Part shown: positions 792-44,282 of the stretch, piece by piece
Position numbering within the stretch: the stretch's first letter is position 1
Layout of the letters: the number at the start of each line of letters is the position of its first letter
Source of the DNA: an uncultured Candidatus Saccharibacteria bacterium
GTDB taxonomy: Bacteria > Patescibacteriota > Minisyncoccia > Phycocordibacterales > UBA9973
Assembly: GCA_964348725.1 (NCBI GenBank)
Contig: CAYGDG010000001.1
Location: 65,898-129,897 of the forward strand
Direction of reading: 5' to 3'
DNA length: 64,000 bases
Position numbers and translations under genes: made by a program
The notes under the pieces: model-generated
What the model was told of the DNA's origin: nothing
The model's database searches: none
Seen by the model: only the letters and a program-made list of their open reading frames with translations

Positions 792-871
792 ATGACATAT
801 AGACTATCATATAAAAAAAATATTGCAATACCGCTTTGACTTTCGCATTCAAAAAAGCTACTATAGACGCA

Positions 872-1339
872 ATGAATAAAGAAGCCGATTACATAACAGA
901 AGAGAAGCGCAAGGAGCTGGAAGCCGAGCTCGTTGATTTGAAGGGGCCAAAAAGGAAAATAATTTTGGACAGTTTGGAATATGCGAAGTCGCTCGGCGAC
1001 CTGTCTGAAAATGCGGAATACCACCAAGCTCGCGAAGAACAAGGCAAGCTGGAAGAGCGCATTCAGAAAGTGGAAGGCATATTGCAGTCTTCACAAGTCG
1101 TGAGCGGCGGCGGCGGAGATGTCATCGAGATCGGTTCGAAAGTCATCGTGCAGAAAGAAGGCAGCAAGGATGAAAAGACATATATGATAGTAGGCAGCGA
1201 AGAAGCGGATATGGCTGCAGGTAAGATCTCGAATCACTCGCCGATCGGCGAAGCGCTTTTCGGCAAGAAGAAAGGCGACACCGTTTCCTTCAATACTCCG
1301 AACGGTAAGGTGAATTACAAAATAATCAAAGTTTCTTAA
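872..1339 (+). CDS. greA: Transcription elongation factor GreA
   Basis: N-terminal coiled coil (ITEEKRKELEAELVDL) and C-terminal FKBP-like domain with SPIGEALFGKKKGD. The start is moved to the internal ATG at 872, which sits 7 nt after a TACTAT -10 box. Confidence 0.85.
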   Translation: MNKEADYITEEKRKELEAELVDLKGPKRKIILDSLEYAKSLGDLSENAEYHQAREEQGKLEERIQKVEGILQSSQVVSGGGGDVIEIGSKVIVQKEGSKDEKTYMIVGSEEADMAAGKISNHSPIGEALFGKKKGDTVSFNTPNGKVNYKIIKVS

Positions 1340-9119: not shown

Positions 9120-9980
9120 TCATTTTGCTTTGTGCTTATTTAGTAGATAAAGAATATTATTAAGCTCTAGCCATAGGTACACATATTCCTTTTCAGTAAA
9201 ATTTTTTGGCTGACCTCCATTCTCGTGGTGAACATTTTTAATTACATAATCTAGAAAATTCTCAAAGTCAGAATTACTATCGTTAAATAGTATGTTTGAT
9301 AACTGCTTTTTCTCATGGATCCGCGGAAAGGTTCCGTCTGATCTTTTATAGCCATTCTGTAATGTATTTTCCACAACCTTTTTGAGATTATCGAGTGACT
9401 TATTATAAAAAAGTTTATCACTTTTAATTACATCTTTTTTATACAAAAGAAAATCTGAGACACATTCTTGATAGCGAATTTTATTATCACCTTCTAAGTC
9501 CGAATCGTTAGAATTGATTAATCTCGTATTTATCTCGTCAATCTTCCTTCGAAAATCATGATTTTTCTTATCGTAGTAGAAATCAAGATTAAAAACACTA
9601 GGGTTATTTGAACTAGCTATCAAATCAAAAAATTTATAAGTAATCACTGTAAAATCAGATCTTCGTTCATTGGGTATTTTTTGATACTGCCATTCTTCTT
9701 TTCCGAGGTATTGTAAGATGTTTGGTAATATTTCATTAAAAAATGATAAGAAAATTTCTTGCTCACCGTTCAAGTAAGTTTCTGCCAAAAAACTCATTAC
9801 AGGGTACCCATTTCTTTTTTTCTCACTATATTTATATTGAGAATTAATATCATCCGTTAGAATATACCTAATAATATTTTTATTCTCTGCTTCATTAAAT
9901 AAATTACAGGCTGATGCGTAAAAAGATTGATAATCATGAGCAAACTTTTCAAGATTAAGTTTTTGAAATTCATCATTCAT
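9120..9980 (-). CDS. Uncharacterised 286-aa protein, operon partner of the Shedu-like nuclease
   Basis: AT-rich ORF whose start overlaps the stop of the upstream gene by 8 nt (co-operonic). Asn/Lys/Tyr-rich composition and no recognisable motif. Confidence 0.6.
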   Translation of the reverse strand: MNDEFQKLNLEKFAHDYQSFYASACNLFNEAENKNIIRYILTDDINSQYKYSEKKRNGYPVMSFLAETYLNGEQEIFLSFFNEILPNILQYLGKEEWQYQKIPNERRSDFTVITYKFFDLIASSNNPSVFNLDFYYDKKNHDFRRKIDEINTRLINSNDSDLEGDNKIRYQECVSDFLLYKKDVIKSDKLFYNKSLDNLKKVVENTLQNGYKRSDGTFPRIHEKKQLSNILFNDSNSDFENFLDYVIKNVHHENGGQPKNFTEKEYVYLWLELNNILYLLNKHKAK

Positions 9981-11040
9981 ATAATGATTTTAAAAGTTTT
10001 AACTTTGAAATGACTTCATCAAAGGTCAGTATTTGATTCTTGCCTAATGATTTTCGAAATAGATCAAAAGACTTTTTTTGAGTTTCAGAAAGCGAATCGT
10101 ATGTTCCAGCTATTAAGACTCCGCAAGGGTTTAAATGTGTGAGTCCATCAAAATCAGCACCAATTTGAGTATTAAAATATTCTGTAGCAATATGAATTTG
10201 ATTTTCCATTTGAACAACTCCACCCGATAGATCTCCATGAATGCTGTACACTTCATTTTTTTCTCCGGAATCTTTTTCTCCTCGGTAACATGAACCGACA
10301 AGCGAGCAATTTGGCTCTTTAATCTCGACAACCGCAAAACTTCCATTTGAACCATTTTTAAATAAAAAATCAGTTGCAGATCCGCCTGACCCTTGGCGGC
10401 CTTTCGAATTTTTTCCACCTAAATATGTTTCTCCATTTAAGTATATAACGGGATATAAGAAAACTTGTTGCAATACCCACGGACGTTCTTCAAAAAAGGT
10501 TTGCCAAAAAGATTCTTCGTGATTTGAAAGACTAGACTCCATGTCAGCGATAGCTTTTTCAAGTCGAGCACGTCCAATTGCAAGACCTAGATTTTCAAAA
10601 TTGTTATCTTCAAGAGATCGTAACTGTTCAATGACCCATTCTCGATTAGAGATGTCTCCAATTTGTAAAAAAATACCAGGTGCACTTTCTTTCGTTAATG
10701 GAACTACTGTCGTTCCATAGGAATGACCATACTTTGTAAGAGTACTATTAATTTCAGATAACCTACTAAGTAATAAAGATACTTCTTCACCTTTGAGGGA
10801 AAGCTCGTAGCCTTCGTCTGACTTTAACGAGCTGAGTGTTTCATGTTCAATTGTCTCCCAAGTTCCTAAACGGGATTTTCTTTCAAATCTGAATAGGCCT
10901 CTTAACGAGTTGTCTGATTCGCTTACCCAAACAGGTGCAAAGATAAGACGAGATGTACTTGTCTCACGTAGCACAATAGGACTTATGTCCATTGTGGCAT
11001 TTGATGTTGATTTGGTAATTATTCTAGCAAGCATATTCAT
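9973..11040 (-). CDS. Shedu (SduA)/DUF4263-like PD-(D/E)xK nuclease
   Basis: 355 aa. The central segment ESFWQTFFEERPWVLQQVF resembles the DUF4263 N-terminal signature. Putative catalytic residues lie in TDFLF...FAVVEIKEP (D...ExK), and the tail ILTFDEVISKL is typical of the family. AT-rich composition; the gene sits directly downstream of a tRNA. Confidence 0.5.
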   Translation of the reverse strand: MNMLARIITKSTSNATMDISPIVLRETSTSRLIFAPVWVSESDNSLRGLFRFERKSRLGTWETIEHETLSSLKSDEGYELSLKGEEVSLLLSRLSEINSTLTKYGHSYGTTVVPLTKESAPGIFLQIGDISNREWVIEQLRSLEDNNFENLGLAIGRARLEKAIADMESSLSNHEESFWQTFFEERPWVLQQVFLYPVIYLNGETYLGGKNSKGRQGSGGSATDFLFKNGSNGSFAVVEIKEPNCSLVGSCYRGEKDSGEKNEVYSIHGDLSGGVVQMENQIHIATEYFNTQIGADFDGLTHLNPCGVLIAGTYDSLSETQKKSFDLFRKSLGKNQILTFDEVISKLKLLKSLYE

Positions 11041-12267: not shown

Positions 12268-13317
12268 CTATTCTTCAAATTTTGGCTTCTCGATCTCGAG
12301 GCTCGTGAGCTCAGGCGAGGAGCCGGTGATTCGCATGACGTCTTTATCTATTTGTTTCAGTGCTTTATTGGATGCGGTGTAATGGTTTACTACTGTGCCG
12401 AGCGCGTTGCCGAGCTTGAGGTGGTATTCTTCGTAGCCTTTCAAATGCTTACCGAGGTCTTCCACGCGCTTGATGATGTCTTTAGCACTTTCTTCTATCT
12501 GCATCGCTTTTAAGCCCTGGAGGACTGTCTGCAAATATGCCAGGAATGAAGTGGGCGAAGTGATGATGACTTTGTATTTGCCCGCCGCGCGCTGGATGAG
12601 GTTTTCGTTGTCTTCGTCTTTCAGTCCGCCGATCTTGTTCACCAGCAAGTCATAATAGATAGCTTCGTGGGGGATGAACATGAAAGCAAAGTCGGTGGTG
12701 CCTTGGCTCGGCTGTACGTATTTTGCTGTTTCTACTATTCTGTTTTTTAGGTCGTTCACGAATATCTTTTCATATCTTTCTTTTTCGCCCGCGTCTATCG
12801 CTTCTGCCATACGATTGTAATTTTCCAACGAGAATTTTGAATCTATCGGAATTATTTTATCTTTCACGAATACCACTGCGTCCACTATCGTGCTGTCGGG
12901 GAATGGGTACTGCATCTGGTAACTGCCGGGCGGGAGGACATTTTTCAAAACCGTCTCCAAATAATATTCGCCGAGTATTCCGCGCTGTTTTGGATTCTTT
13001 AATATATTTTGCAAGTCCTGCAATTGGTCTGCAAAGCCCACGACTTGCTTTTGCCCTTCGCCCACGCGCACGAGCTCTTCAGTAATCTCGCGGATTATTT
13101 TATTTGATTCAGTGGAGTGAAATTTAAGAGACTCATTCATTTGCTTGTGCGTGTCGCCGAGTTTCGCGTCCACTGTCTTCTGTAATTCGTTCATCTGCTG
13201 GAGCAGGAGAGAAAAGCCCGTATCGTTCTGCGTATTTTCTTTTTTTCTGCCAAAGACGAAATAAACGACCACGCCGCCTGCGATGAGCCCGATAAGTATC
13301 CAAAATCCTGTTTGCAT
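12268..13317 (-). CDS. rmuC: DNA recombination protein RmuC
   Basis: N-terminal TM helix, a long coiled coil and the conserved LGEYYLETVL, FMFIPHEAIYYD region of the RmuC family. Confidence 0.85.
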   Translation of the reverse strand: MQTGFWILIGLIAGGVVVYFVFGRKKENTQNDTGFSLLLQQMNELQKTVDAKLGDTHKQMNESLKFHSTESNKIIREITEELVRVGEGQKQVVGFADQLQDLQNILKNPKQRGILGEYYLETVLKNVLPPGSYQMQYPFPDSTIVDAVVFVKDKIIPIDSKFSLENYNRMAEAIDAGEKERYEKIFVNDLKNRIVETAKYVQPSQGTTDFAFMFIPHEAIYYDLLVNKIGGLKDEDNENLIQRAAGKYKVIITSPTSFLAYLQTVLQGLKAMQIEESAKDIIKRVEDLGKHLKGYEEYHLKLGNALGTVVNHYTASNKALKQIDKDVMRITGSSPELTSLEIEKPKFEE

Positions 13318-13624
13318 AGGTCTATTTTAGCAGGATTTATAAGAATAGAATAGCACTTGACAAAATATCTTTAATTTGCTATGCTCACTAGTAAGAATAT
13401 CTTTGCAAGTAAATACAGCCACGGGAGTGTAGCCCATTACTCGTGCTGAACATAATCAGTAGAATGAGCTTCTTGAGTCAAATTACAACAGACGATCTTT
13501 AATCTGTTGAGATGAGCCTAGTTTTTGTTTTTGGTGCACGAAAACATGACTAGTGAGATAAGTTCTATACACGTAAGCGCAGTTAGCAACTTGGATCAGC
13601 GAATGTGTTTATTGCAAAATTTTC

Positions 13625-13711: not shown

Positions 13712-14425
13712 TTATTTCCCCAAAAAGTGCTCCAGCGTATAAATCCAATCTTCTTCATTTGATTCACTTTGTTTTTTCTGGGCGAGTAACCACTGCAGAT
13801 ATCCCGGGTCTATGCGCGCGACGTCTTCTACCTTTTGCCCGTTGTATTTACCGAAAGGGAATGTCCGCATCAGGGACGGCTTGGCGGAAATTTCTATCAT
13901 TTTTTCTATAGCCTCGTCTTCACTCATACCGCTGTCGGTCAATTTTTTCTGTAATCTTTCAAAAAGCTTTTCTAATACTTTCACATCACCCATGGCATCG
14001 TGCGCTTGCGCGTCTATTTCTATTTCCAAGAGGTAGCGCAAGTATTGCAGATTATATTTTTCAATTTTCCCTTCGGCGTCCAGGTCGCGCGCCACGCGCA
14101 AAGTGCAGATGAAATTTGCCGGCACTATGCCTTCATTTTTCAGCATGCCCAAATCAAAAGCCGCATTGTGCGCGACGCAGATGGTTTCAGCATCTTCAAA
14201 AAGTTCTTTTATTTTTTGCTTGCCTTCATGCTCGGCGAAAGATGCTTTGCTTTCCACCATCTTATTTGAAATGTGATGCACTGCGCTGGCTTCTGGTGGA
14301 ATTTTTACCGGCGGCTTGTAGAGGCAGTTGAATTCTTCAGCACCATACTTGTATGCCAGCTGGCAGATGTAATCAGTAGTTGTATTACCAGTAGTCTCCG
14401 TATCAAAAAATATTATTTTCTTCAT
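13712..14425 (-). CDS. DEDDh 3'-5' exonuclease (exonuclease X-like) with C-terminal DUF3820-like domain
   Basis: Exo I/II/III motifs FFDTETTG, HNAAFDLGML, HDAMGDV. The C-terminal FGKYNGQKVEDV...DPGYLQWLL resembles the ExoX C-terminal domain. Confidence 0.8.
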   Translation of the reverse strand: MKKIIFFDTETTGNTTTDYICQLAYKYGAEEFNCLYKPPVKIPPEASAVHHISNKMVESKASFAEHEGKQKIKELFEDAETICVAHNAAFDLGMLKNEGIVPANFICTLRVARDLDAEGKIEKYNLQYLRYLLEIEIDAQAHDAMGDVKVLEKLFERLQKKLTDSGMSEDEAIEKMIEISAKPSLMRTFPFGKYNGQKVEDVARIDPGYLQWLLAQKKQSESNEEDWIYTLEHFLGK

Positions 14426-14511
14426 ACTGATATTCTAGCATAATAAAAAAAGTATAAAAAATAGCCATATCAGTTTCCCAATATGGCTATTTAAATTCAA
14501 TCACTCACACA

Positions 14512-16185: not shown

Positions 16186-16201
16186 TGTTATAATATTTCC
16201 C
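16186..16201 (+). promoter_or_regulatory. Extended -10 promoter driving a leaderless yqeY mRNA
   Basis: TGTTATAAT at 16186-16194, then a 7-nt spacer, then ATG at 16202. Confidence 0.5.
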
Positions 16202-16651
16202 ATGTTACACGAACAGATAAAAAGCCAAATAAAAGAAGCCATGATGGCAAAGGATAGCGTACGGCTCGAAGTACTTCGTGGCATGAGTGCCGCTTGTACG
16301 AATGAAGCCGTAGCGAAAGGCAAGACCCCGCAGGATATGCTGACGGACGAGGAAACGCTCGCAGTCATCACGCGCCTCGCGAAGCAGAGAAAAGATTCCA
16401 TAGAGCAATTCACAAAAGGCGGCAGGGAAGACTTGGTGGCCGAAGAATCTGCCCAGCTCGCGATCTTGGAAACATACTTGCCGGCGATGATGCCGCGCGA
16501 AGAAGTAGAAAAAATCGCCCGCGCAAAAAAAGAAGAACTTGCTATAACCGATCCGACCAAAAAAGGCATGCTCATGTCCGCGCTGATGAAAGACCTGAAA
16601 GGCAAAGCTGACGGCAATGACGTGAAAGCGGCGGTGGATTCTCTGTTCTAA
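16202..16651 (+). CDS. yqeY: GatB/YqeY domain protein
   Basis: MLHEQIKSQIKEAMMAKDSVRLEVLRG... is the characteristic YqeY helical domain. The ORF-track start at 16166 is replaced by the ATG placed for a leaderless transcript. Confidence 0.8.
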   Translation: MLHEQIKSQIKEAMMAKDSVRLEVLRGMSAACTNEAVAKGKTPQDMLTDEETLAVITRLAKQRKDSIEQFTKGGREDLVAEESAQLAILETYLPAMMPREEVEKIARAKKEELAITDPTKKGMLMSALMKDLKGKADGNDVKAAVDSLF

Positions 16652-17280: not shown

Positions 17281-18154
17281 ATTTATTACGCATAGCGGTT
17301 CTTTTCACGCAGACGATGTGTTTGCCTGTGCCACTTTGATGATCCTGCTCGATAAGCGCGGCGAAGGATATGAAGTCACTCGTACGCGCGAGCCGGAAAT
17401 CATAGCCGCCGGTGATTTTGTCTTTGATGTCGGCGGCATACATGATGAATCCATAAATCGTTTTGATCATCACCAGCCGGGCGGTGCAGGTAAGCGCGAC
17501 AATGGTATCGAATACGCATCGTTCGGACTTGTCTGGAAAAAATACGGCACGGAAGTGGCCGGCTCACACGAGGCGGCAAAAAAGATAGATCAAAAGCTCG
17601 CACAAGTGATAGACGCGGGGGATAATGGCATCAGTATTTCTAAAAATCTCTTTGAAGATGCTTCGCCGTATGAATTTCATAACATCATTCACGCATTCTT
17701 ACCGACCTGGCGTGAGGATACGGACAAGGACGCTCTCTTTTTAGAACTCGTTACATTCGGCAAAAAAATTCTTGAGCGCGAAATAGTAAAAGCCAAGAGC
17801 GCCGAGGACGACAGAAAGAAAGTACTCGAAGCATATGATGCCGCGGAAGATAAAAGGATCATAATTCTAGATGAAAGATATTCTTGGGGGGATACATTGT
17901 CCGAATTCCCCGAGCCGTTGTTTGTCATCCAGCCGCGCGAAGATGGTGCATGGAATATTGCGGCTATCCGTAAGGAAAAGGATTCATTTAAGAACCGCAA
18001 AGACTTGCCGGCCGCATGGGGTGGACTGACTGGCTCACAATTAGCGCAAGCTACCGGCGTATCGGATGCCGTGTTCTGCCACCGTGCTCTTTTTCTGGCT
18101 GGTGCCAAAAGCCGCGAAGGCGCTTTGAAAATGGTGCAAACTGTGGTAGAATGA
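17264..18154 (+). CDS. MYG1/UPF0160 family metal-dependent hydrolase
   Basis: N-terminal THSGSFHADDVFACA and DHHQPGG motifs typical of the MYG1 family. Confidence 0.8.
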   Translation: MDKKNKFITHSGSFHADDVFACATLMILLDKRGEGYEVTRTREPEIIAAGDFVFDVGGIHDESINRFDHHQPGGAGKRDNGIEYASFGLVWKKYGTEVAGSHEAAKKIDQKLAQVIDAGDNGISISKNLFEDASPYEFHNIIHAFLPTWREDTDKDALFLELVTFGKKILEREIVKAKSAEDDRKKVLEAYDAAEDKRIIILDERYSWGDTLSEFPEPLFVIQPREDGAWNIAAIRKEKDSFKNRKDLPAAWGGLTGSQLAQATGVSDAVFCHRALFLAGAKSREGALKMVQTVVE

Positions 18155-18158
18155 GAAT

Positions 18159-18542
18159 ATGGAACGCCCAAAGAATTTAAACCAGATAAAAATAGATTTT
18201 GATGCGGCAGAAACCGAGCATGCAAAAGATATAGAAAAAAAGATACAGATTTTGGCTTTGCGGAACAAGTACTTCAAGGAATATGTGGACCAAAAATTCC
18301 GTTTTGAAGATTACAATATGGCAGAAATAAAAAAGGATGCTATCAATGCCGATCTGAAAAAATTGGATTTGGAAAAAATGGCAACGACCGTGCTTGCCAC
18401 GGATAAAAATGGCTCTTTTAATCAATGGCGAGTGAATCTGGATTTCCAAAAACTGACCGAGCTATTTCGCGATATTACGGCGGATGTACTGGATGAAAAT
18501 GGCTTGATACAGGTGAAATCAGAGTTGAAAAATGCGGCATAA
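18159..18542 (+). CDS. Hypothetical protein
   Basis: 127-aa ORF with compact operon spacing. No domain recognised. Confidence 0.5.
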   Translation: MERPKNLNQIKIDFDAAETEHAKDIEKKIQILALRNKYFKEYVDQKFRFEDYNMAEIKKDAINADLKKLDLEKMATTVLATDKNGSFNQWRVNLDFQKLTELFRDITADVLDENGLIQVKSELKNAA

Positions 18543-18548: not shown

Positions 18549-19544
18549 ATGGCATTCATAGATGAAATAAAAATATACGCGGAGGCTGGGCGCGGAGGCG
18601 ACGGCGTGGTGCGTTGGCGCCAGGAAAAATTTATTGAGCGTGGCGGCCCGGCTGGCGGCGACGGCGGCAAAGGTGGGGATGTGTATGCCCTCGCAGTGCG
18701 CGATGTGCATATCCTCGCGAAATACAAAGCGAAGAAAGAATTTCTCGCTGAGCGCGGCGAGGATGGCGGCAGCAAGCAGATGCACGGTGCGAATGGTAAA
18801 GATCTTTTTATAGAGCTTCCCATCGGCTCGGTCATCACGAATCTTGAAACCGAAGAAAAATTTTTACTCACGGAAGAGGGACAGAAAGAACTGCTCCTCA
18901 AAGGCGGCTGGGGAGGTTTTGGTAATGAACATTTCAAGAGCTCCACGAATGTTACCCCACAAGAAAATACCGCCGGCCAGCTCGGCGGTGCTTCACATTT
19001 TTCTATAGAACTTGAACTCTTCGCTGACATTGGGCTCGTGGGCTTGCCGAATGCCGGAAAATCTTCGCTCTTAAATTCCATCACCAATGCCGACGCAAAA
19101 GTGGGTGACTATGCTTTCACCACGCTGGACCCGAACCTTGGCGCTTTTTACGGCTACATCATCGCGGACATCCCGGGAATTATCGAAGGCGCATCCGAAG
19201 GCAAAGGCCTCGGCGTAAAATTTTTAAAACATGTAAAGCGCACGAAAATGCTCGCGCATCTTATCTCTTTTGAAAACCCGAATATGATGAAGACATATAA
19301 AGAAATCCGCGCCGAGCTGGAAGCCTATGATACAAAAGCAGGTATTACCGAAGGCGGGCTTTCCACAAAAGAAGAAATCATCGTCCTTACAAAGACCGAT
19401 GTACTACAGGATGAGCCGAAGATGATAGAAAAGAAAAAGAAAGAATTCGAAAAGCTCGGCAAGCCTGTTTTCACCCTATCGCTCTATGAAGATGACTCAG
19501 TAAAGAACTTCCGTGACGAGCTTATAAAAATTTTGAAAAAGTAG
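18549..19544 (+). CDS. obg: GTPase Obg/CgtA
   Basis: Obg fold with glycine-rich repeats (GGDGGKGGDV, GGWGGFGN), followed by G1-G4 GTPase motifs (GLPNAGKSSL, DIPG, TKTD). Confidence 0.95.
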   Translation: MAFIDEIKIYAEAGRGGDGVVRWRQEKFIERGGPAGGDGGKGGDVYALAVRDVHILAKYKAKKEFLAERGEDGGSKQMHGANGKDLFIELPIGSVITNLETEEKFLLTEEGQKELLLKGGWGGFGNEHFKSSTNVTPQENTAGQLGGASHFSIELELFADIGLVGLPNAGKSSLLNSITNADAKVGDYAFTTLDPNLGAFYGYIIADIPGIIEGASEGKGLGVKFLKHVKRTKMLAHLISFENPNMMKTYKEIRAELEAYDTKAGITEGGLSTKEEIIVLTKTDVLQDEPKMIEKKKKEFEKLGKPVFTLSLYEDDSVKNFRDELIKILKK

Positions 19545-19556
19545 TATACTATCTGG

Positions 19557-20990
19557 ATGGAAAAGAAGTATTATCCGACCATCGGACTTGAAATTCACGC
19601 GGAATTGGCGACGAAGACCAAGATGTTCTGCGCTTGCCTGAATGATCCGGACGAAGAAATTCCGAATAAAAATATCTGTCCCGTCTGCATGGCGCATCCG
19701 GGCACTTTGCCTGTGCCGAATAAGCAGGCCATTGAAAATGTGATAAAAATCGGCCTGGCGATAGGCGCGAATATCGCCGACTTTTCCGAATTTGACCGCA
19801 AGAATTATTTTTATCCCGACATACCAAAGGGTTACCAAATTTCACAATTCAAATACCCGATAGTTTCCGGCGGCAAGCTGGCTGATTTCGACATCACCCG
19901 TATCCATCTCGAAGAAGACACCGCGAACAATAAGCACGACCGCGGCGATTTTTCACTTATCGACTTCAACCGCGCCGGCGTACCGCTCTCCGAGCTCGTC
20001 ACTGAAGCGATGACATTCGATACTGCCGAAGATGCAGCCCACGCCGCTTCGAATTTTGCCAAAGAATACCAGCTATTGCTCCAGTATCTCGGCGTATGCG
20101 AAGCGAATATGGAAAAAGGCGAAATGCGCGTCGAAGCGAATGTATCCGTCTCGCCTGACCGCGAGAAAAAATGGAGCGCGTATGTGGAAGTAAAAAATCT
20201 GAACTCGTTCAAAACAGTAGAGAAAGCCATCAAGTATGAAGTCGAGCGGATGATAGAGCTTTTTGAAGCAGGCAGGGAAGCGGAAATCGTGAAGGAGACG
20301 CGCGGCTTCGACGACGGCAAGCAAGCCACTTTTTCCCAGCGCAAAAAAGAATCCAGCCAGGATTATCGTTATTTCCCGGATCCCGACCTGCCAAAGATGA
20401 AATTGCACGAAGCTTTTAATATCGAGAAATTAAGAAATGAATTGCCTGAGCTGCCGGTCGCCAAGCGCGCCCGTTATCAGAATGATTTCGGCATCAAGGA
20501 TGAAGACATCGAGACGTTCATCAATGAACATGAATTGGCGGCGTGGTTCGAAGGCACGGCTAAAATTTTAAATGACAAGGAAAAATCTCGCACTGCGGCG
20601 AACTTCATCACTTCTGACTTCATTGGTCTGCGAAAAGCTGACTTGGAGGCAAGACCTCCAAGCGCGGAGAGCTTTGCCGAATTGGTGAATATGTTCGCCG
20701 ATGCGAAGATATCTTCCCGCGCGGCCAAGGATATTTTGGCGATGATTTCCAAAAATGATGAAAGCCCGATGAAGATAGCCGAAGAGAAGAAATTGCTCCA
20801 GCAGAATGATGAAGGCGCATTGAAAGAAATCGTACAGAAAACGATAGACGCGAATCCCGAAGTCGTTGCTACATATAAGGGCGGAAAAGAAAATGCTATA
20901 ATGTCGCTAGTCGGAAAGGTGATAAAGGAGACGGCGGGCAGCGCCAATCCGCAAGTCGTTATAAAATTATTAAAAGAACTTTTAGCATAA
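19557..20990 (+). CDS. gatB: Asp-tRNA(Asn)/Glu-tRNA(Gln) amidotransferase subunit B
   Basis: YYPTIGLEIHAELATKTKMFCAC, the GatB N-terminal signature, plus a C-terminal YqeY-like domain. Confidence 0.95.
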   Translation: MEKKYYPTIGLEIHAELATKTKMFCACLNDPDEEIPNKNICPVCMAHPGTLPVPNKQAIENVIKIGLAIGANIADFSEFDRKNYFYPDIPKGYQISQFKYPIVSGGKLADFDITRIHLEEDTANNKHDRGDFSLIDFNRAGVPLSELVTEAMTFDTAEDAAHAASNFAKEYQLLLQYLGVCEANMEKGEMRVEANVSVSPDREKKWSAYVEVKNLNSFKTVEKAIKYEVERMIELFEAGREAEIVKETRGFDDGKQATFSQRKKESSQDYRYFPDPDLPKMKLHEAFNIEKLRNELPELPVAKRARYQNDFGIKDEDIETFINEHELAAWFEGTAKILNDKEKSRTAANFITSDFIGLRKADLEARPPSAESFAELVNMFADAKISSRAAKDILAMISKNDESPMKIAEEKKLLQQNDEGALKEIVQKTIDANPEVVATYKGGKENAIMSLVGKVIKETAGSANPQVVIKLLKELLA

Positions 20991-23759: not shown

Positions 23760-23796
23760 TTACATTCTAATATTCTATAGAATTATAGAATAGATT

Positions 23797-24075
23797 ATGA
23801 ACAAAAAATTAGAGTACAGAAAGCTGGAGAGAATAGTCAAAGGTTTTGCGAATCATCGGCGATTACAAGTTTTGGAACTTCTTGAAAAAGAGTCTGAGTT
23901 GTCGGTGGGCGATATAGCAGAAAAAGTAAAATCAGATATAAAAAATATCTCTGCGCACATACATAAGATGGCTATTGCCGGTTTAATTATGAAAAGGAAC
24001 GAGGGAAACATCGTGCGCCATAAACTAACTAATCGTGGTAAAAGTATTCTACAATTCGTTAGAATTATAGAATAG
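23797..24075 (+). CDS. ArsR/SmtB-family transcriptional regulator
   Basis: 92 aa with a winged HTH: RRLQVLELL...LSVGDIAEKV...ISAHIHKMAIAGLIMKR. Confidence 0.75.
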   Translation: MNKKLEYRKLERIVKGFANHRRLQVLELLEKESELSVGDIAEKVKSDIKNISAHIHKMAIAGLIMKRNEGNIVRHKLTNRGKSILQFVRIIE

Positions 24076-26274: not shown

Positions 26275-26324
26275 TCGCTTCCTCAGCTCTTGCATTTTTT
26301 AATTTTTCATATATACTCAGGACT

Positions 26325-26975
26325 ATGTTAGTTTTAAAGGCAAAAAGCAGGAATATCAGCGAAAATAACGAAACCTTGAGAAAAGGCGGCTCTTTGCCGG
26401 CAGTATTCTACGGCGCAGGAAAGAACTCGACTCCTATTTCCATCTCCATGATCGAATTCAAGAAGATCTGGCACAAGGCCGGTGAATCTACGACCGTAAA
26501 GATCGAGTCCGATGCGGGAGCAGTAGACACGCTCATTCACGAAGTGCAGACCGATCCGGTGACTGATGAGCCGATACACGCGGACTTTCTCGTCATCGAT
26601 ATGAACAAGAAGATCAAGGTGAACGTAGCCCTCGAATTCGAAGGCGTATCCGGTGCGGTAAAAGGCAATCTCGGAAACTTGGTCAAAGTGCTTCACGAAG
26701 TTGAAATCGAAGCGCTCCCGAAAGATCTGCCGCACAATCTCGTTGTCGATATCTCTCATTTGAACGCAGTCGGCGATCAGATCCTCGTATCCGACATCAA
26801 AGTACCGACCGGAGTAGAGATCATCTCTGGTCCTGAAGAAGTAGTAGCTTCCATCGCTGAACAGAAAGAAGAAGTTGAAGAAACCGCACCAGTAGACCTC
26901 TCCAGCATCGAAGTGGAAAAGAAAGGCAAGAAAGAAGAAGAGGGAGCTGAAGGCGCTGCTGAAGAGAAAAAATAG
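26325..26975 (+). CDS. rplY: 50S ribosomal protein L25/general stress protein Ctc
   Basis: Ctc-form L25 with the N-terminal L25 domain and a C-terminal acidic extension. The ATG follows a TATACT -10 box by 7 nt. Confidence 0.9.
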   Translation: MLVLKAKSRNISENNETLRKGGSLPAVFYGAGKNSTPISISMIEFKKIWHKAGESTTVKIESDAGAVDTLIHEVQTDPVTDEPIHADFLVIDMNKKIKVNVALEFEGVSGAVKGNLGNLVKVLHEVEIEALPKDLPHNLVVDISHLNAVGDQILVSDIKVPTGVEIISGPEEVVASIAEQKEEVEETAPVDLSSIEVEKKGKKEEEGAEGAAEEKK

Positions 26976-27013
26976 CCCTGAAATAAAACAAAATATATGG
27001 TACAATAAAAACT

Positions 27014-28372
27014 ATGGTGAAGAAAACCATAGTTTTTATATTCTTATTCGCACTCCTGGCACAAGCTACGCCTATTTTGAAGGTTCATGCCCAATCCACT
27101 GAGCTTACAGCAGCGCAGGCTGATAGGGCCAAGCTCGAAGCTGAACTCATCGCACTCGAAGCCGAGATCAAAAAAAAGGAAGCGGAGCTTTCCGGTCAGA
27201 AAGGACAATCAGCTTCGCTGAATCGCGATATCGCCGTATTGAAGACAAAAATATCAAAATCCCAGCTCGACATCAAAGCGAAGAACCTCACTATCCAGAA
27301 GCTCAGCGGGGAAATAAAGCAGAAGAGCAGCGCCATTCAGAACCTGACAGAAAAGATCGAAGTGGAAAAAGATTCTTTGGCACAGCTCATCCGCAAGAAT
27401 CAGCAGATAGATAATCAGACACTGCTTGCCCTCCTCATCTCAAATAATTCACTCTATGACATGTATGGCGATGTGGACGCCTTCAACGCTCTCAAGCAAG
27501 CAATCAGCGCGTCCGTGCAGGAAATAAAAGGCGATCGGGCTGAGACTGAGATGGAAAAGAAATCTTTGGAAGAGAAACAAGATGCGGAATCAGATGCCAA
27601 GGCGGCGCTCGAAAAAGACAAGAAGCAGGTGGAAAATAACGAAAAGGAAAAACAAAAGCTGCTCTCTATCAGCAAAGACAAAGAAAAAGAATATCAGAAA
27701 ATTATAGCTGAACAGCAAAAGAAAGTGGCCGATATCAGGGCGCGTCTTTTCAATCTTGCCGGAGGCTCACAAGCTATTCGCTTTGATGTAGCGCTGGGAT
27801 ATGCGGAAGAAGCTTCAACCCGCACTGGTGTAGAGCCGGCATTCATTTTGGCCATCATTACACAAGAGAGCAAGCTTGGCGCAAACGTAGGCAAATGTTA
27901 CCTGACTGACACTACTACCGGGGCGGGTGTATCGACCACCGGCAAGGCTTGGTCAAACTTAATGAAACCCTCCCGCGATGTGGGGCCGTTTTTGGAAATT
28001 ACTTCCGCTCTGGCCCTCAACGCATTCAAGACTGTCGTGTCCTGTCCGATTGCCGGAGTGGCCGGTTATGGAGGTGCGATGGGTCCGGCGCAATTTATCC
28101 CGAGCACATGGAAAATCTTTGAATCACGCGTAAAGAAAATTACCGGTTCGGCAAATCCATGGGCACCGCGTGATGCTTTCACTGCTTCAGCCCTTTATTT
28201 GGCAGATCTCGGCGGCACCGGTTCCAGCCAGGCAGCCCAGAAGAAAGCAGCCTGCAAATATTACGGTTCGGGAGGCACTTCTTGCTCATATGGCAATAGC
28301 GTCATAAAGCTCAAAGACAGCATCCAGGACGACATCGATTACTTGAAAGAATACGGCGTTTCTAAACGATAA
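27014..28372 (+). CDS. Secreted coiled-coil protein with C-terminal lytic transglycosylase (SLT)-like domain
   Basis: Signal peptide (MVKKTIVFIFLFALLAQA), a coiled coil of about 200 aa, then an SLT-like C-terminus with ITQESKLG (catalytic Glu-Ser), GAMGPAQFIPSTW and ALYLADLGG. Confidence 0.65.
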   Translation: MVKKTIVFIFLFALLAQATPILKVHAQSTELTAAQADRAKLEAELIALEAEIKKKEAELSGQKGQSASLNRDIAVLKTKISKSQLDIKAKNLTIQKLSGEIKQKSSAIQNLTEKIEVEKDSLAQLIRKNQQIDNQTLLALLISNNSLYDMYGDVDAFNALKQAISASVQEIKGDRAETEMEKKSLEEKQDAESDAKAALEKDKKQVENNEKEKQKLLSISKDKEKEYQKIIAEQQKKVADIRARLFNLAGGSQAIRFDVALGYAEEASTRTGVEPAFILAIITQESKLGANVGKCYLTDTTTGAGVSTTGKAWSNLMKPSRDVGPFLEITSALALNAFKTVVSCPIAGVAGYGGAMGPAQFIPSTWKIFESRVKKITGSANPWAPRDAFTASALYLADLGGTGSSQAAQKKAACKYYGSGGTSCSYGNSVIKLKDSIQDDIDYLKEYGVSKR

Positions 28373-28395: not shown

Positions 28396-28665
28396 TTGCC
28401 AAAAACCATGTCTTGTGATAACATCATTCCTATGCAAAAGAAGATACATCCAAAATACGATATGAAGACCAAAGCCACTTGCGCATGCGGAGCGGTATTT
28501 GAAGTTGGTTCCACTCTCCCTGAAATCAACGTAGAAATCTGCAGTTCGTGCCACCCGTTCTACTCTGGCAAGGAAAACCTTCTCGATATGGCCGGCCGCG
28601 TAGACCGCTTCAAGAAGCGTGCTGCCGCCTCTGCCGCAGTCAAGACTACTAAAGCGAAGAAATAA
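28396..28665 (+). CDS. rpmE: 50S ribosomal protein L31
   Basis: KKIHPKYD...CACG...CSSCHPFYSGKENLLDMAGRVDRFKKR is the L31 zinc-ribbon signature. The true start may be the internal ATG at about 28432. Confidence 0.8.
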   Translation: MPKTMSCDNIIPMQKKIHPKYDMKTKATCACGAVFEVGSTLPEINVEICSSCHPFYSGKENLLDMAGRVDRFKKRAAASAAVKTTKAKK

Positions 28666-28677
28666 ACCTCTACAAAT

Positions 28678-28707
28678 AAAAGCCCGCTTTGTCGGGTTTT
28701 TATTTTT
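28678..28707 (+). terminator. Rho-independent terminator after rpmE
   Basis: AAAGCCCG-CTTTGT-CGGGTTT followed by TTATTTTT. Confidence 0.6.
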
Positions 28708-28721
28708 GCTATACTATACAC

Positions 28722-29690
28722 ATGGAATTAGATATCGACGAACTGAAGAAGAATCACAAGACCGCATACCTTGCGGAGATTTTGGAGCGCTTGAACCAAC
28801 AAGAAGCCGAAGTACGAGAGATGCTCGAAGGAGATGAGACGCTTCGCGAGATGGCTTCGGCCGAACTTGCAGGCATCGAAGAACAGCAGGCAAATACAAA
28901 AAAGCAGATCCAAGATATTCTCGATAAAGACAAAGAGGAAGAAGAATCTCCGAATGAGATCGTGCTCGAAGTACGTGCCGGCGCAGGGGGAGATGAAGCC
29001 TCTCTTTTTGCCTGGCAGCTCGCGCATGCATATGAAAAATTCGCTGAAATACAAGGCTGGAGCTGGAAAGTGAACTATGAGAGCAAGAGCGACTTGGACG
29101 GCTACAAAGAAGCCAGCTTTGAAATAAAAGGAAAAGATTCATATAAAAAAATGCGTTACGAGACAGGCGTGCATCGCGTTCAGCGCGTGCCGGCCACTGA
29201 AAAGAACGGTCGCGTGCACACTAGTACCGCGTCGGTGGCGATTTTGCCTATCAGGAAGAAAGTGACTTTTGAGATAAATCCGGCGGATTTTGATATGGAA
29301 TACTCACGCTCCGGCGGCAAAGGCGGACAGAATGTGAACAAGGTGGAGACTGCAGTGCGCATCATTCACAAGCCGACAGGCCTCGATGTTCGCTCCACGA
29401 ATGAACGCTCCCAGCTCGCGAATCGCGAAAAAGCAATGATGATTTTGACTAATAAGCTCCAGCAATTGAAAGAAGAAGAAGAAGCAAAAAAATATGCCGG
29501 CGTGCGCAAAGACCAGATCGGCTCCGGCGACCGCTCGGAAAAAATCCGCACCTACAATTTTCCGCAGGACCGCATCACGGACCACCGCATCAAGAAATCT
29601 TGGCACAATCTGCCGAAGATATTGGAAGGGGAACTCACCCCTATCATTTCAGCTCTGGAGTCAGGAGAGACGGGGAATGAGGAGGAATAA
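28722..29690 (+). CDS. prfA: Peptide chain release factor 1
   Basis: GGQ motif (SRSGGKGGQNVNKVETAVR) and PxT-type decoding region. The start is set at the ATG at 28722, 6 nt after TGCTATACT (leaderless), rather than the ORF-track 28689. Confidence 0.9.
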   Translation: MELDIDELKKNHKTAYLAEILERLNQQEAEVREMLEGDETLREMASAELAGIEEQQANTKKQIQDILDKDKEEEESPNEIVLEVRAGAGGDEASLFAWQLAHAYEKFAEIQGWSWKVNYESKSDLDGYKEASFEIKGKDSYKKMRYETGVHRVQRVPATEKNGRVHTSTASVAILPIRKKVTFEINPADFDMEYSRSGGKGGQNVNKVETAVRIIHKPTGLDVRSTNERSQLANREKAMMILTNKLQQLKEEEEAKKYAGVRKDQIGSGDRSEKIRTYNFPQDRITDHRIKKSWHNLPKILEGELTPIISALESGETGNEEE

Positions 29691-30382: not shown

Positions 30383-30489
30383 CAAGATGAACAAAAATGT
30401 CATTACGATCGTATTTGTCATCGCGATGCTGATTTTTCAGGTTTTATACTGGTTGCGCATCATTAATTTTTAGCCTATAATTCTGGCGT

Positions 30490-30717
30490 ATGCATGAAAA
30501 ATTATGGCAGCCTGTGTTGTTATTTTACGCGAAAGCCACCGGCTGGATAGCTTTGCCGATAGTGCTGGCATCCGTCTTCAGCAAGAATTTGCCTGACGCG
30601 GGCCGTATCGCGGCATTCGTCGTAGCGTTCCTCATTTCAATCTGGGGAATTTACCGCGAGATAAAAAAGTACCAGAAAGATATAAACAATACGGAAAACA
30701 AAAATGGCGACAAATAA
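30490..30717 (+). CDS. Small two-TM membrane protein, ATP synthase protein I (AtpI/AtpZ)-like
   Basis: 75 aa with two hydrophobic helices, immediately upstream of and overlapping atpB. The ATG follows TATAAT (30476-30481) by 8 nt. Confidence 0.5.
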   Translation: MHEKLWQPVLLFYAKATGWIALPIVLASVFSKNLPDAGRIAAFVVAFLISIWGIYREIKKYQKDINNTENKNGDK

Positions 30718-38819: not shown

Positions 38820-38847
38820 ATAGGCTAATTCGTGCGAATTAGCCTAT
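38820..38847 (+). promoter_or_regulatory. Second ArsR-type operator palindrome in the promoter of the downstream membrane-protein gene
   Basis: ATAGGCTAATTCG-TG-CGAATTAGCCTAT, perfect 13-bp arms. It lies about 25 nt upstream of a TGTTAGAAT -10 box; the ATG is at 38890. Confidence 0.6.
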
Positions 38848-38889
38848 TAATCTATTTGTCTGATAACATCTATGTGTTAGAATATCCCT

Positions 38890-39360
38890 ATGCCTGATTT
38901 CAAGCAAAACATAGACACTATAGACGCGGGGATAATCCACACGATGCGAAAGTGGGCTTTGCCATTTGGTAGGTTTGCTATTTTCGTCGTGTACTTTTGG
39001 TTCGGAATTTTAAAATTATTTTCTCTCTCGCCAGCAAATCCGCTCGTGGCGGCACTCTTGATAAAAATTTTGCCCGGTGTTTCTTTTGATACTTTTATCG
39101 TGGCTCTTGGTGCTTTTGAAATAATGCTCGGCGTGATATTTCTGATCCCGACGCTTTCCCGCCTGGCCATATTTTTCCTTTTCTTGCATATGATTATGGT
39201 AGTGATGCCGCTGATCCTCGTGCCGGCGGCTACGTGGCAAAGCTTCCTCGTGCCGACACTCGAAGGGCAATACATCATCAAAAACATTCTCATCGTAGGC
39301 CTGGCCATAGTCATCGCCGCGCATTTGCATCCGTTCAAGCATACAAAGAGCAATGCCTAA
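38890..39360 (+). CDS. Four-TM membrane protein of unknown function (DoxX/DUF417-like topology)
   Basis: 156 aa with four hydrophobic helices. Likely target of the adjacent ArsR regulator. Confidence 0.55.
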   Translation: MPDFKQNIDTIDAGIIHTMRKWALPFGRFAIFVVYFWFGILKLFSLSPANPLVAALLIKILPGVSFDTFIVALGAFEIMLGVIFLIPTLSRLAIFFLFLHMIMVVMPLILVPAATWQSFLVPTLEGQYIIKNILIVGLAIVIAAHLHPFKHTKSNA

Positions 39361-40024: not shown

Positions 40025-41982
40025 AGTATATCCTCAGGATCTGCATGTACAGAAAATTCCGGTGGTAGGGAAAGGATTTTTACAGCGAGGCGCTCGTCTG
40101 GCATTTTTCCGGCGGGAATTTTGATCAGCATATTTGTGATATATGCGCCTGCCTGCCGTCCGGTAAATGCGGCATAGATGTGCGGCTCGTATTCGCGGAA
40201 TACTTCGGCGAGGGCGTGCTTTATTTCAGCCGCTTGTTCGCGCGTGCCCTGGTGGGTGATTTTAAGAAAGCGCACATACGGCGGATAGCCGAGCTTTTCC
40301 CGGTCCGCTAATTCTTCGCGCACATATGGCAGGATGTTGCCTTCGGTGATGGCGCGCAGGGCCGGTTCATTCGGATTTTTTGTGCGGATGAGCAGGCGAT
40401 TGCTCTTTGCGATGATGGCAAGCAAGAGCTGGAGCGCTCGTTCGCCGATGCGGAAATTCGGTATGGAAAAAAGGGAATCAAGCGAAGCGATGACTGAGAG
40501 CGGCACGCGCTCGGGCAGATACGGAAATGCGAGCTCTGTGCCCACGAGGATGGCGCCGCGGCTCTCGGCGAATTGCGCGGCTATTTTTTTTGCCTGCGGG
40601 GCGGTCTTTACGGATTCTTTGTCCAGCTGGAATATTTCTGTTTTCGGAAAATTTTCGCGGCATGCTTCAGCCACGGCATCCGTACCCACGCCGAGCGGCA
40701 TGAGGTTCCAGCCGCCGCATGTTGCGCACTTGGTATTGGAATCTTTTTCGCTGTGGCAACGGTTGCAGGCGTAGCGGCGTTTTGATTTGTCACGCGAGAA
40801 ATACAGCACTACCGGTGCGGAGCATTTATCGCAGAATACTGGCGTGCCGCAATCGCGGCATACGGTGAGCGTGCCGAGCCCTTTGCGCAGGGAAAAGATA
40901 AAAACATTCTCGCCTTTTTGCAAAGTGCTTTGTATCTCCTCCCGTGCGGCTTCGGGCAGGATATTGAACCCGCCCGGGCGGGCAGGCTTCTCTTCTTTTT
41001 CCAGTATTTTGATTTCGCAGTCTGAATCGGTGCGGAAAGAAAATCGCACTTCGCCGAAGTGTTCGTTCTCGCGGCGGGCGATGGTGTCAAAGCGGAGCAA
41101 CGTGTCCGCAAAGATGAGCCGGGCGCCCATTTTCGCCGCGAAAAATTCGGCAAAGATGCGCAAGTCCAGATATGGGCGTGCGATGAGCTTATACGCGCCG
41201 GAGCTTTCATGCTCTATGATTACTGTGCCGATGTCGGCCCGCGGTATGGATACGTATGGCGCGGTGGCGAGGATGAGCACGGGGTGAGGGCACGCTATAG
41301 TAGCGAGCCAGGTACTCGTCTGCTTTTTTGTGGTCATGCCGCCATGGACGGAGAAAGTAAAATTCTCTATGCCTTTTTGTAATAACTCGGAAAATATTTC
41401 TATGTCGCGCTCGGTGGGCAATACGATAAAGACGGATTTTTTCTCGGCGAATGACGAGCGGATGAGCGTTTTGTAATGCGAGACGCGTTCGGCGAGTGGA
41501 GATTGGAAAAGAAGTTTTTCGGGCACGCTTCGCGCAGAATGTGAATCCTGGGGTCGCATAATTTCCTGCTGGAAATTTGCTCCTGCTCGGCCCGACGGCC
41601 TGTGCAAGACCCCAGGATTCACATTCTGCGCTTTACTGATGAGATCATAATTCTCCCGGAATGCCGCGGGGATGAGCGAAGCGATAGTGTCATTTTTTCT
41701 GGCGGCGGAATATTTTGCCAGCTCCAGCGCGCTTTCTAAAAATTCCGGGCGAAATACGGAGTTGCCTTTTACCTCGGTCACCTTGCGCAGATTGAAATCC
41801 ATATTCTTAATGTCGCTCTTTGCGCCCTCGGCATCTTCAGTGGAAGCCACCAGCCCGAGGATATTTTTTTTACGCACCGGTATTTCCACGATGGCGCCTA
41901 CAGGCGCGTCCTTTGCCGTAAAATACGTCAGGTCCTCGCGGAAAGCGCCTTTTTGGAGGGGAATTACGGTCAGGATTTTCAT
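40021..41982 (-). CDS. priA: Primosomal protein N' (PriA) with degenerate helicase motifs
   Basis: N-terminal 3' DNA-binding domain, Cys-rich zinc-binding insert (CRDCGTPVFCDKCSAPV...CNRCHS...CATCGG) and a C-terminal domain. Walker A is replaced by SPLAERVSHY and DEEH by IEHE. Confidence 0.8.
   Translation of the reverse strand: MKILTVIPLQKGAFREDLTYFTAKDAPVGAIVEIPVRKKNILGLVASTEDAEGAKSDIKNMDFNLRKVTEVKGNSVFRPEFLESALELAKYSAARKNDTIASLIPAAFRENYDLISKAQNVNPGVLHRPSGRAGANFQQEIMRPQDSHSARSVPEKLLFQSPLAERVSHYKTLIRSSFAEKKSVFIVLPTERDIEIFSELLQKGIENFTFSVHGGMTTKKQTSTWLATIACPHPVLILATAPYVSIPRADIGTVIIEHESSGAYKLIARPYLDLRIFAEFFAAKMGARLIFADTLLRFDTIARRENEHFGEVRFSFRTDSDCEIKILEKEEKPARPGGFNILPEAAREEIQSTLQKGENVFIFSLRKGLGTLTVCRDCGTPVFCDKCSAPVVLYFSRDKSKRRYACNRCHSEKDSNTKCATCGGWNLMPLGVGTDAVAEACRENFPKTEIFQLDKESVKTAPQAKKIAAQFAESRGAILVGTELAFPYLPERVPLSVIASLDSLFSIPNFRIGERALQLLLAIIAKSNRLLIRTKNPNEPALRAITEGNILPYVREELADREKLGYPPYVRFLKITHQGTREQAAEIKHALAEVFREYEPHIYAAFTGRQAGAYITNMLIKIPAGKMPDERLAVKILSLPPEFSVHADPEDIL
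40969..40982. repeat. Family-B palindrome CCCGCCCGGGCGGG inside priA
   Basis: 14-nt perfect palindrome of the CCCGCC-NN-GGCGGG type, encoding KPARPGGF on the minus strand. Confidence 0.5.
41532..41631. repeat. ~100-nt compound inverted-repeat (MITE-like) element in frame inside priA
   Basis: Perfect 24-bp arms GCGCAGAATGTGAATCCTGGGGTC and GACCCCAGGATTCACATTCTGCGC flank a 52-nt core that has its own small IRs (TTTCCTGCTGGAAA, GGCCCGACGGCC). Confidence 0.7.
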
Positions 41983-42020
41983 GGCTTTATTTTATCACAA
42001 GATGTGCTAATATTGGCTCT

Positions 42021-43708: not shown

Positions 43709-43730
43709 TTTTTCTGCTACAATTAAGGCT

Positions 43731-44282
43731 ATGCAATACAATTTTTCAAACTTTAAGAACGAATTAAAAAAGGTAGAGGAATTTTTGGCTAAGGAATACA
43801 GCCAGCTTTCCGCCGGCCGGGCTAGCCCGATGGTGCTGGACAGTGTGTCTGTAGAAGTATACGGCGCATTTCAGCCAGTGAAAAACGTGGCTTCCATCTC
43901 CATTGAAGACCCGAAGACGCTCCGCATTGCGCCGTGGGACAAGAGTCAGATAAAGGCAATTGAAAAAGCCATCACGGTCGCGAACTTGGGCCTATCCACC
44001 GCTGTAGACGAATCAGGCATCCGCCTCATTTTCCCCCAGCTCACCACCGAGACCCGCCAGAAATTGGCGAAAGTGCTGAAAGAAAAATTGGAAGAATCAC
44101 GCATCACCGTGCGCCGCGAGCGCGAGCGCGTGTGGGAAGAAATACAGGAGATGGAAAAAAATGCGAAGATGACCGAAGATGAAAAATTCCGCGCCAAGGA
44201 TGACTTGCAGAAAGTGATAGACGAGGCGAACGGGAACTTGGAAAAAGTTTTTGAGAAAAAAGAAACGGAAATAATGGGATAA
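43731..44282 (+). CDS. frr: Ribosome recycling factor
   Basis: 183 aa from the ATG at 43731, which sits 7 nt after TGCTACAAT. MVLDSVSVEVYG...LGLSTAVDESGIRLIFPQLTTETR matches RRF. The ORF-track start at 43551 is an out-of-frame extension overlapping holB. Confidence 0.9.
   Translation: MQYNFSNFKNELKKVEEFLAKEYSQLSAGRASPMVLDSVSVEVYGAFQPVKNVASISIEDPKTLRIAPWDKSQIKAIEKAITVANLGLSTAVDESGIRLIFPQLTTETRQKLAKVLKEKLEESRITVRRERERVWEEIQEMEKNAKMTEDEKFRAKDDLQKVIDEANGNLEKVFEKKETEIMG

Follow-up and report, generated by a model that had tools for sequence, protein, structure and literature searches.

The window analysed here, a stretch of 64,000 nucleotides from contig CAYGDG010000001.1 of the assembly GCA_964348725.1, carries in front of many of its genes the same short arrangement, a hexamer resembling the bacterial -10 promoter element followed, usually after 6 or 7 nt, by an ATG start codon. 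The window forms part of a 174-kb metagenomic contig (ENA ERZ27247837, k141_2203926). Judged from its sequence, the organism is an uncultured, ultra-small bacterium of the Candidate Phyla Radiation (CPR, or Patescibacteria) and belongs to the Parcubacteria group (Nomurabacteria/Paceibacterota). The index site is that of yqeY, where TGTTATAAT (16186-16194) is separated by the 7-nt spacer atttccc from ATG 16202. A first-pass annotation of the window had listed 14 such sites, and all of them are present with their boxes, with two small corrections: the greA spacer, given as 6 nt, is 7 nt long (TACTAT agacgca ATG 872), and the TG counted as an extended -10 element (TGn) at dnaX directly abuts the hexamer (TTG/TATACT) and is therefore non-canonical. 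Nine further sites were found beyond that list, at ATGs 13317, 14425, 55254 and 9980 on the minus strand and 18159, 46129, 28432, 23797 and 60876 (the last one weak) on the plus strand. All hexamers have the form TAnnnT, with T1, A2 and T6 invariant by the definition of the search and TATAAT as the consensus, and a box is termed strong when it is TGn-extended or matches TATAAT in at least 5 of 6 positions. The sites are listed below with coordinates, strand, gene and elements in 5′ to 3′ order, spacings being given between successive elements.

16186..16204, plus strand: yqeY (index site); TGT TATAAT, 7 nt, ATG 16202; Pfam YqeY profile positions 2-141 correspond to residues 4-147.
836..874, plus strand: greA; -35 element TTGACT (836-841), 17 nt, TACTAT, 7 nt, ATG 872; independently called at 155 aa.
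9978..9995, minus strand: gene for a 286-aa hypothetical protein; TAAAAT, 6 nt, ATG 9980; box inside the Shedu gene upstream, at its 3′ end.
13315..13332, minus strand: rmuC, absent from the earlier list; TGC TAAAAT, 6 nt, ATG 13317.
14423..14492, minus strand: RNase T/ExoX-like exonuclease gene; 15-bp terminator hairpin (14492-14459; fold z=-3.97) with U-tract, TGC TAGAAT, 6 nt, ATG 14425.
18125..18161, plus strand: gene for a 127-aa hypothetical protein; TTGAAA, 16 nt, TGG TAGAAT, 6 nt, ATG 18159; the preceding gene's TGA stop overlaps the box.
19542..19559, plus strand: gatB; TATACT, 6 nt, ATG 19557; the upstream TAG stop lies immediately 5′ of the hexamer.
23783..23799, plus strand: ArsR-type helix-turn-helix gene; TAGAAT, 5 nt, ATG 23797.
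26309..26327, plus strand: rplY (bL25/TL5); -35 element TTGCAT upstream, TATACT, 7 nt, ATG 26325.
26998..27016, plus strand: SLT transglycosylase gene; TGG TACAAT, 7 nt, ATG 27014.
28416..28434, plus strand: rpmE (L31); TTGCCA, 17 nt, TGA TAACAT, 7 nt, ATG 28432; Pfam L31 positions 1-63 correspond to residues 1-63.
28674..28724, plus strand: prfA; the U-tract of a terminator hairpin (fold z=-3.84) runs into TGC TATACT, 6 nt, ATG 28722.
30473..30492, plus strand: 75-aa open reading frame (ORF) heading the atp operon, with no Pfam match; TTGCGC, 17 nt, TATAAT, 8 nt, ATG 30490.
38820..38892, plus strand: gene for a 156-aa protein; 12-bp hairpin (38820-38847; fold z=-4.16), TTGTCT, 16 nt, TGT TAGAAT, 6 nt, ATG 38890.
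41980..41997, minus strand: priA-like gene; TGA TAAAAT, 6 nt, ATG 41982.
42005..42023, plus strand: mreB; TGC TAATAT, 7 nt, ATG 42021; box adjoins the divergent priA box within the 38 bp between the two genes.
43715..43733, plus strand: frr; TGC TACAAT, 7 nt, ATG 43731.
46114..46131, plus strand: alr; TGC TATACT, 6 nt, ATG 46129; box wholly within the last codons of the upstream gene (ATGA overlap).
52763..52780, plus strand: parB; TGC TAAAAT, 6 nt, ATG 52778.
55252..55288, minus strand: relA/spoT-like gene; TTGAAA, 16 nt, TATAAT, 6 nt, ATG 55254.
59574..59611, plus strand: serS; TTGAAG, 17 nt, TATAAT, 6 nt, ATG 59609.
60862..60878, plus strand: gene for a 280-aa hypothetical protein, the weakest site; TATCAT, 5 nt, ATG 60876; box within the 3′ end of serS.
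63696..63713, plus strand: dnaX; TATACT, 6 nt, ATG 63711.

The arrangement is real and occurs far above chance. For counting, we used a set of 76 ORFs called with a self-trained codon model followed by gap filling (a fourth-order model was overfitted), in which the start was taken as the first ATG of each ORF, a rule blind to the box; gene names were checked by Pfam or by independent public gene calls. Greedy calling of the longest ORF was rejected because it chose wrong-strand ORFs, for instance opposite yqeY and rplY. A strong box lies 5-8 nt upstream of 18 of the 76 starts, and for all the other ATGs, 2053 in number, the count is 30 (Fisher p=3.5e-15), so that the possibility raised by the first-pass annotation, that -10-like hexamers are equally common at random ATGs, does not hold; among ATGs matched for AT context the frequency is 20 of 556 (p=2e-8). 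Counted directly in the window, TGNTANNNT-N6-ATG has 9 matches where 1.66 are expected and TGNTANNNT-N7-ATG has 7 where 1.88 are expected, values reached by none of 100 dinucleotide-preserving shuffles in either case. A histogram independent of gene calls gives the same picture: the two strands together contain 33 TGNTANANT sites, of which 13 are followed by an ATG after 6-8 nt, while any other spacer length has about 0.3. At the gene starts the spacer distribution has its maxima at 6 nt (12-13 sites) and 7 nt (3-7 sites). The loose form TANNNT is nearly uninformative because it is too common (2009 sites in the window, with 41, 40 and 40 at spacers 6 to 8 against about 32, a weak excess; one lies 5-8 nt before about 14% of the ATGs with AT-rich surroundings), and the signal needs either TGn or the match of at least 5/6 to TATAAT. 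No spacing peak was seen in a 50-kb control from Escherichia coli, where 0 of 65 annotated starts have a strong box, nor in 50 kb of phage T4 (34% GC) with its 569 strong boxes.

The same arrangement is found in related genomes. We collected the best 80 RF1 matches in the GTDB species representatives (60-82% identity) and took the loci around prfA (L001-L080, 1.26 Mb in total), all from metagenome-assembled genomes labelled Candidatus Nomurabacteria, Paceibacterota, Minisyncoccia or Parcubacteria. Before ATGs of ORFs of at least 80 aa, again without gene calls, TGNTANNNT occurs 104, 84 and 31 times at spacers 6, 7 and 8 against a background of about 10. Of the 73 loci exceeding 8 kb, 69 show the signal, and each similarity bin has it too, with a density of about 2.3 sites per 10 kb. 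At the level of single genes, 59 of 64 rplY orthologs (92%) keep a TTGCAT or TTGACT -35 element, TATAAT or TATACT and a 6-7 nt spacer to the ATG; a strong box precedes 36 of 40 SLT orthologs (90%), and a box is found in 32 of 38 orthologs of class-II fructose-bisphosphate aldolase (84%), 6 of 6 of the exonuclease and 5 of 6 of the ArsR-type gene, compared with 0-27%, the background level, for ATP-synthase operon genes. The spacer sequence diverges among orthologs while the arrangement is kept. In several relatives (L003, L005, L010-L012, L025, L027 and others) the last codons of gatB, ATG-CTA-AAA-TAA (M-L-K-stop), themselves form TGCTAAAAT 6 nt before the ATG of the aldolase gene; the counterpart in the window (20980-21002) has decayed to GCATAAT with an 8-nt spacer.

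The position of the box also bears on the choice of start codons, as the longest-ORF start is wrong for four to five genes in the window. The starts of yqeY, prfA, frr and greA that the first-pass annotation had corrected turn out to be right: the YqeY profile lies at the N-terminus, the ribosome recycling factor (RRF) profile begins at residue 20 as expected, and GreA has 155 aa, RRF and GreA both being of canonical length. Pfam profiles (from position 1-3) begin within residues 1-8 of YqeY, bL25, GatB, MreB and L31, and tblastn matches to orthologs begin at residues 1-6. Five genes have at least one ATG in the open frame ahead of the ATG next to the box. A further candidate at ATG 29954, whose box is kept in 47 of 47 orthologs, was removed from the set, because it is internal to the gene of an RRM protein starting at 29840.

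Shine-Dalgarno (SD) sequences are essentially absent, as the first-pass annotation had remarked. SD-like tetramers occur at -18 to -3 of 6 of the 76 starts compared with 4-10 at control offsets, whereas the same test in E. coli gives 46 of 65 starts against 1-5; no SD distance peak was detected in the window or in the 1.26 Mb of relatives, in contrast to the clear peaks of E. coli and T4. The single exception named earlier stands as the sole good SD context of the window: AAGGAGG lies 4 nt before ATG 57673 (57662-57675, plus strand), an occurrence compatible with chance, in front of a 93-aa ORF with no Pfam match that is one of three small unannotated genes (57673-58610). A GGAGG-N4-ATG peak in the relatives was considered as a residual SD signal and rejected, as it stems from GYGGAMGPAQ, a conserved motif inside the SLT protein. 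In approximately half of the Parcubacteria an anti-SD sequence is undetectable and “SD helices do not form” (Tsurumaki et al. 2022, RNA 28:1041, PMC9297842).

Several features of the boxes beyond the hexamer are those of promoters. In the relatives TG stands at -3/-2 in about 50% of the sites, and boxes lacking TGn tend toward a TTGnnn element 16-17 nt upstream, as seen for greA, rplY, relA, serS and the leader ORF of the atp operon. The peak at 6-7 nt is specific to ATG, with 156 and 129 sites in the relatives against a background of about 25 and none for GTG, TTG, CTG or control codons. In E. coli, leaderless translation depends on a 5′-terminal AUG, and the ATG-only peak fits this dependence. 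Immediately before the ATG, 72-80% of the sites have a pyrimidine and 6-7% a G. A survey of 49 bacteria placed the transcription start site (TSS) 7 bp downstream of the -10 element and found that a Y-1 R+1 Y+2 triplet centred 7 or 8 bp past the -10 captures the TSS in 93% and 79% of cases (PMC12641261); a yATG at spacer 6 or 7 is such a triplet, in which the A of the start codon would be +1. Directly upstream of the boxes at 14425 (exonuclease gene), prfA and 38890 stand strong terminator hairpins, which leave at most 15-40 nt for the promoter plus any leader, and the 38-bp priA-mreB region holds both boxes; together they leave no space for a promoter plus a leader.

Thus, we consider the best explanation to be that the boxes are housekeeping sigma-70-type promoters whose -10 element ends 6-7 nt before the ATG and which would make leaderless mRNAs, with a probability of roughly 0.8. 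The first-pass annotation had proposed transcripts that begin at the start codon or 1-2 nt before it, and the architecture supports promoters set for a start at the A of the ATG. Since RNA polymerase normally initiates 7-8 bp past the -10 at a pyrimidine-purine-pyrimidine, where the (C/T)-A-T of yATG falls, transcription is predicted to begin at the A of the ATG and to yield an mRNA without a 5′ leader, which could be translated without SD pairing by ribosomes that recognise the 5′-terminal AUG together with initiator tRNA. What the sequences show directly is the architecture, its statistics, its conservation in relatives, the ATG specificity and the lack of SD enrichment; the position of transcription start and the mode of ribosome loading are our inference.

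Not all genes would follow this route. The first-pass annotation held that the organism relies mainly on leaderless initiation, a claim that has to be reduced, because 22-23 of the 76 genes (~30%) fit the arrangement; it is a major mode, not the main one. Of 43 genes that are candidates for heading a transcription unit, 17-18 have a box (approximately 40-42%), as do 6 of 33 tightly packed co-directional genes. Four to five boxes lie inside or across the coding end of the upstream gene (9980, 18159, 46129, 60876), with 19557 using the upstream stop codon. With genes so tightly packed and SD sites missing, some promoters would have come to lie in the final codons, or in the stop codon, of the gene before them, and such embedded promoters, which we take the six boxes at internal genes to be, would give the downstream genes leaderless transcripts of their own.

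The genes of the ATP-synthase operon and many others have no box. Upstream of the no-box genes the last 20 nt contain 45% A and 13% G compared with 28% A and 23% G overall, and at 336 orthologous starts of no-box genes A peaks at -6/-5 (A 0.64, G 0.05), a peak to which nearby TAA stops may partly contribute. Because ~70% of the genes have neither box nor SD, a second SD-independent mode must serve most genes; it would act on operon-internal genes and on those with short leaders, through an A-rich, G-poor and presumably unstructured upstream sequence and close stop-start spacing. Several no-box genes have -10-like boxes 20-45 nt upstream. A clear leadered exception is the gene of the RRM_1 RNA-binding protein (ATG 29840, plus strand), where a TGCTATACT box at 29737-29745 implies a leader of approximately 87 nt and GGGAGA lies 10 nt before the ATG; this leader (29737-29842) is possibly a regulated 5′ untranslated region. 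A different case is the murA-like gene at ATG 52606 on the minus strand (EPSP_synthase fold, profile from residue 12), whose ATG follows approximately 8 nt after the end of tRNA-Leu(CAA) (52615-52699, minus strand) and whose longest ORF (start 52693) overlaps this tRNA. The 5′ end of its mRNA could come from 3′ processing of the tRNA, giving a near-leaderless message without a promoter of its own.

A number of points weigh against the explanation by leaderless promoters. The TSS position in this organism is a prediction from promoter geometry, and no 16S 3′ end or rRNA was found in the window, in the relatives' loci L001-L080 (by fuzzy match to AAGTCGTAACAAGGTA) or in 10 kb of further contig, which is protein-coding only. 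The arrangement is missing from ~70% of the genes, and the six boxes in operon-like contexts would also be carried internally by read-through transcripts. Thirty equally strong boxes in the window precede ATGs other than gene starts, so a box alone is not proof, and a perfect TGCTATAAT-7-ATG (37774-37792, plus strand) heads a mere 52-aa ORF antisense to another ORF. Individual sites, above all the weaker ones (60876, 23797 and 9980), may therefore be wrong even if the class is real.

The alternative that survives best, though we rate it as improbable, is that the boxes act at the RNA level, where an A/U-rich motif other than SD would bind ribosomes on mRNAs that are leadered or polycistronic, similar to the “group B” of GeneMarkS-2, and are not promoters. 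Six strong boxes do precede genes that follow a co-directional neighbour at a distance below 35 nt, and the A-rich, G-poor sequence just upstream of no-box genes indicates that A/U-richness near starts is general here. However, TGn at -15/-14, TTGnnn 16-17 nt further up and the invariant T6 of the hexamer are not known to serve a ribosome in any way; boxes are more than twice as common at candidate first genes as at internal ones; the internal genes of the atp operon lack them, as do most of their orthologs (0-27% with a box); three boxes are directly preceded by terminators; and the A-rich signal of the no-box genes peaks at -6/-5 and not at the position of the hexamer.

Slightly less probable still is that the promoters are real while translation begins at a downstream codon, the ATG at +1 being incidental and the leaders ordinary. 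The start codons are themselves inferred, five genes have a box-adjacent ATG that is not the first in frame, and one such choice (29954) proved wrong. That said, the spacing peak is confined to ATGs, and to those that open long ORFs, and the agreement of the box-adjacent starts with the Pfam profiles of YqeY, bL25, GatB, MreB and L31, with the canonical lengths of RRF and GreA and with the tblastn matches to orthologs argues against a start further downstream. The weakest alternative, a functionless by-product of AT-rich intergenic DNA combined with start choice by eye, can appeal to the abundance of loose TANNNT and its presence 5-8 nt before ~14% of AT-context ATGs and is refuted by the tests described above, namely the shuffles that never reach the observed counts, the AT-context-matched comparison, the flat spacing in AT-rich T4 and the recurrence of the peak in 80 other genomes and at orthologous genes.

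Leaderless initiation is well known from Actinobacteria, Deinococcus and Archaea. The closest known case is “group C” of GeneMarkS-2, marked by a Pribnow box 6-8 nt from the start in 25-50% of operons and typical of Actinobacteria and Deinococcus-Thermus (PMC6028130). Members such as Mycobacterium tuberculosis and Deinococcus deserti likewise have the -10 at a fixed short distance, and the ~42% of operons estimated here falls in the range of that group, yet in those genomes SD sites stand equally far from the start in the other genes, whereas here no SD enrichment exists. Mycobacterial leaderless genes use GTG starts as well as ATG, in contrast to the ATG-only peak of the present lineage, and the genome studied here also differs from group C in being AT-rich and tiny, with promoters sometimes embedded in upstream coding ends. 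Group B, mostly Bacteroidota of the Fibrobacteres-Chlorobi-Bacteroidetes (FCB) group, has one non-SD motif before all genes, including operon-internal ones, which cannot be a promoter (PMC6028130). Its resemblance lies in the A-rich, G-depleted sequence upstream of the no-box genes, as in SD-independent initiation on unstructured leaders, while the TAnnnT box described here bears the marks of a promoter and clusters at first genes. In haloarchaea and Sulfolobus (“group D”), many transcripts begin at the start codon and there is little reliance on SD, as here, but the archaeal promoter box lies approximately 26 nt upstream and is read by TBP/TFB, unlike the bacterial -10 or extended -10 element.

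The anti-SD-less Parcubacteria belong to the same broad lineage, and the lack of SD usage reported here is what anti-SD loss predicts; that study covered rRNA and ribosomal proteins and does not mention an alternative initiation route or leaderless mRNAs (PMC9297842). In the literature that we searched, no description of leaderless mRNAs in CPR, Patescibacteria, Saccharibacteria or Parcubacteria was found, the matches being chance co-occurrences in reference lists, and in a recent perspective on Patescibacteria biology promoters and translation initiation go unmentioned. The finding is thus a known architecture in a lineage for which the searched literature holds no description, extending its range without adding a new principle. 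Whether a CPR lineage of family to class level (Nomurabacteria/Paceibacteria) gave up SD pairing altogether in favour of leaderless mRNAs together with A-rich short leaders or stop-start coupling is in our judgement evenly balanced. If so, a two-route lineage free of SD would be the functional counterpart that the reported anti-SD loss has so far lacked, a role that is plausible for the arrangement, and would make Nomurabacteria/Paceibacteria the most SD-independent free-standing bacteria described. The arrangement also offers a concrete answer to the question of how anti-SD-less Parcubacteria initiate translation, which the ribosome-centred literature has left open (PMC9297842), and bears on the debate whether initiation on leaderless mRNAs is an ancestral trait or one adopted repeatedly as genomes are reduced. 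The window further provides an example of a very compact genome that would place promoters within upstream coding ends. In practical terms, gene calling in CPR genomes is usually oriented on SD sites, and we expect that the use of -10 boxes as marks of the start would improve start calls.

Some smaller observations concern single sites. Across the SLT start codon (27014) extends a 14-bp inverted repeat (ATAAAAACTATGGT...ACCATAGTTTTTAT; 27005-27039, plus strand), and a leaderless SLT transcript would hold its AUG in a short 5′ hairpin. Just past the window on the same contig, a TGATATAAT-6-GTG start (L082, 12490-12517) opens a 509-aa gene and is a possible leaderless GTG case, and a TATAAT-7-ATG start (L082, 19500-19525) opens a NUDIX gene. 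Upstream of greA (546-852, minus strand) two candidate ORFs overlap in different frames, neither with a Pfam match; the called one of 81 aa (ATG 791) has no box, and the other of 106 aa (ATG 798) is preceded by TATGAT-7.

The 52-aa ORF behind the perfect TGCTATAAT-7-ATG has no Pfam match and is antisense to an 81-aa ORF (37959-37714, minus strand). The latter lies between a promoter close to consensus, TTGACA-16-TATACT (38018-37991), and a terminator of 13 bp (37734-37704) at its end. This antisense pair (37704-38018) sits within the atp operon, between atpD and atpC. Finally, the Shedu anti-phage defence gene (SduA N- and C-domain; 9973-11040) adjoins tRNA-Glu (11069-11142) in a stretch of ~40% GC on the minus strand (9120-11142), which is probably an acquired defence islet.

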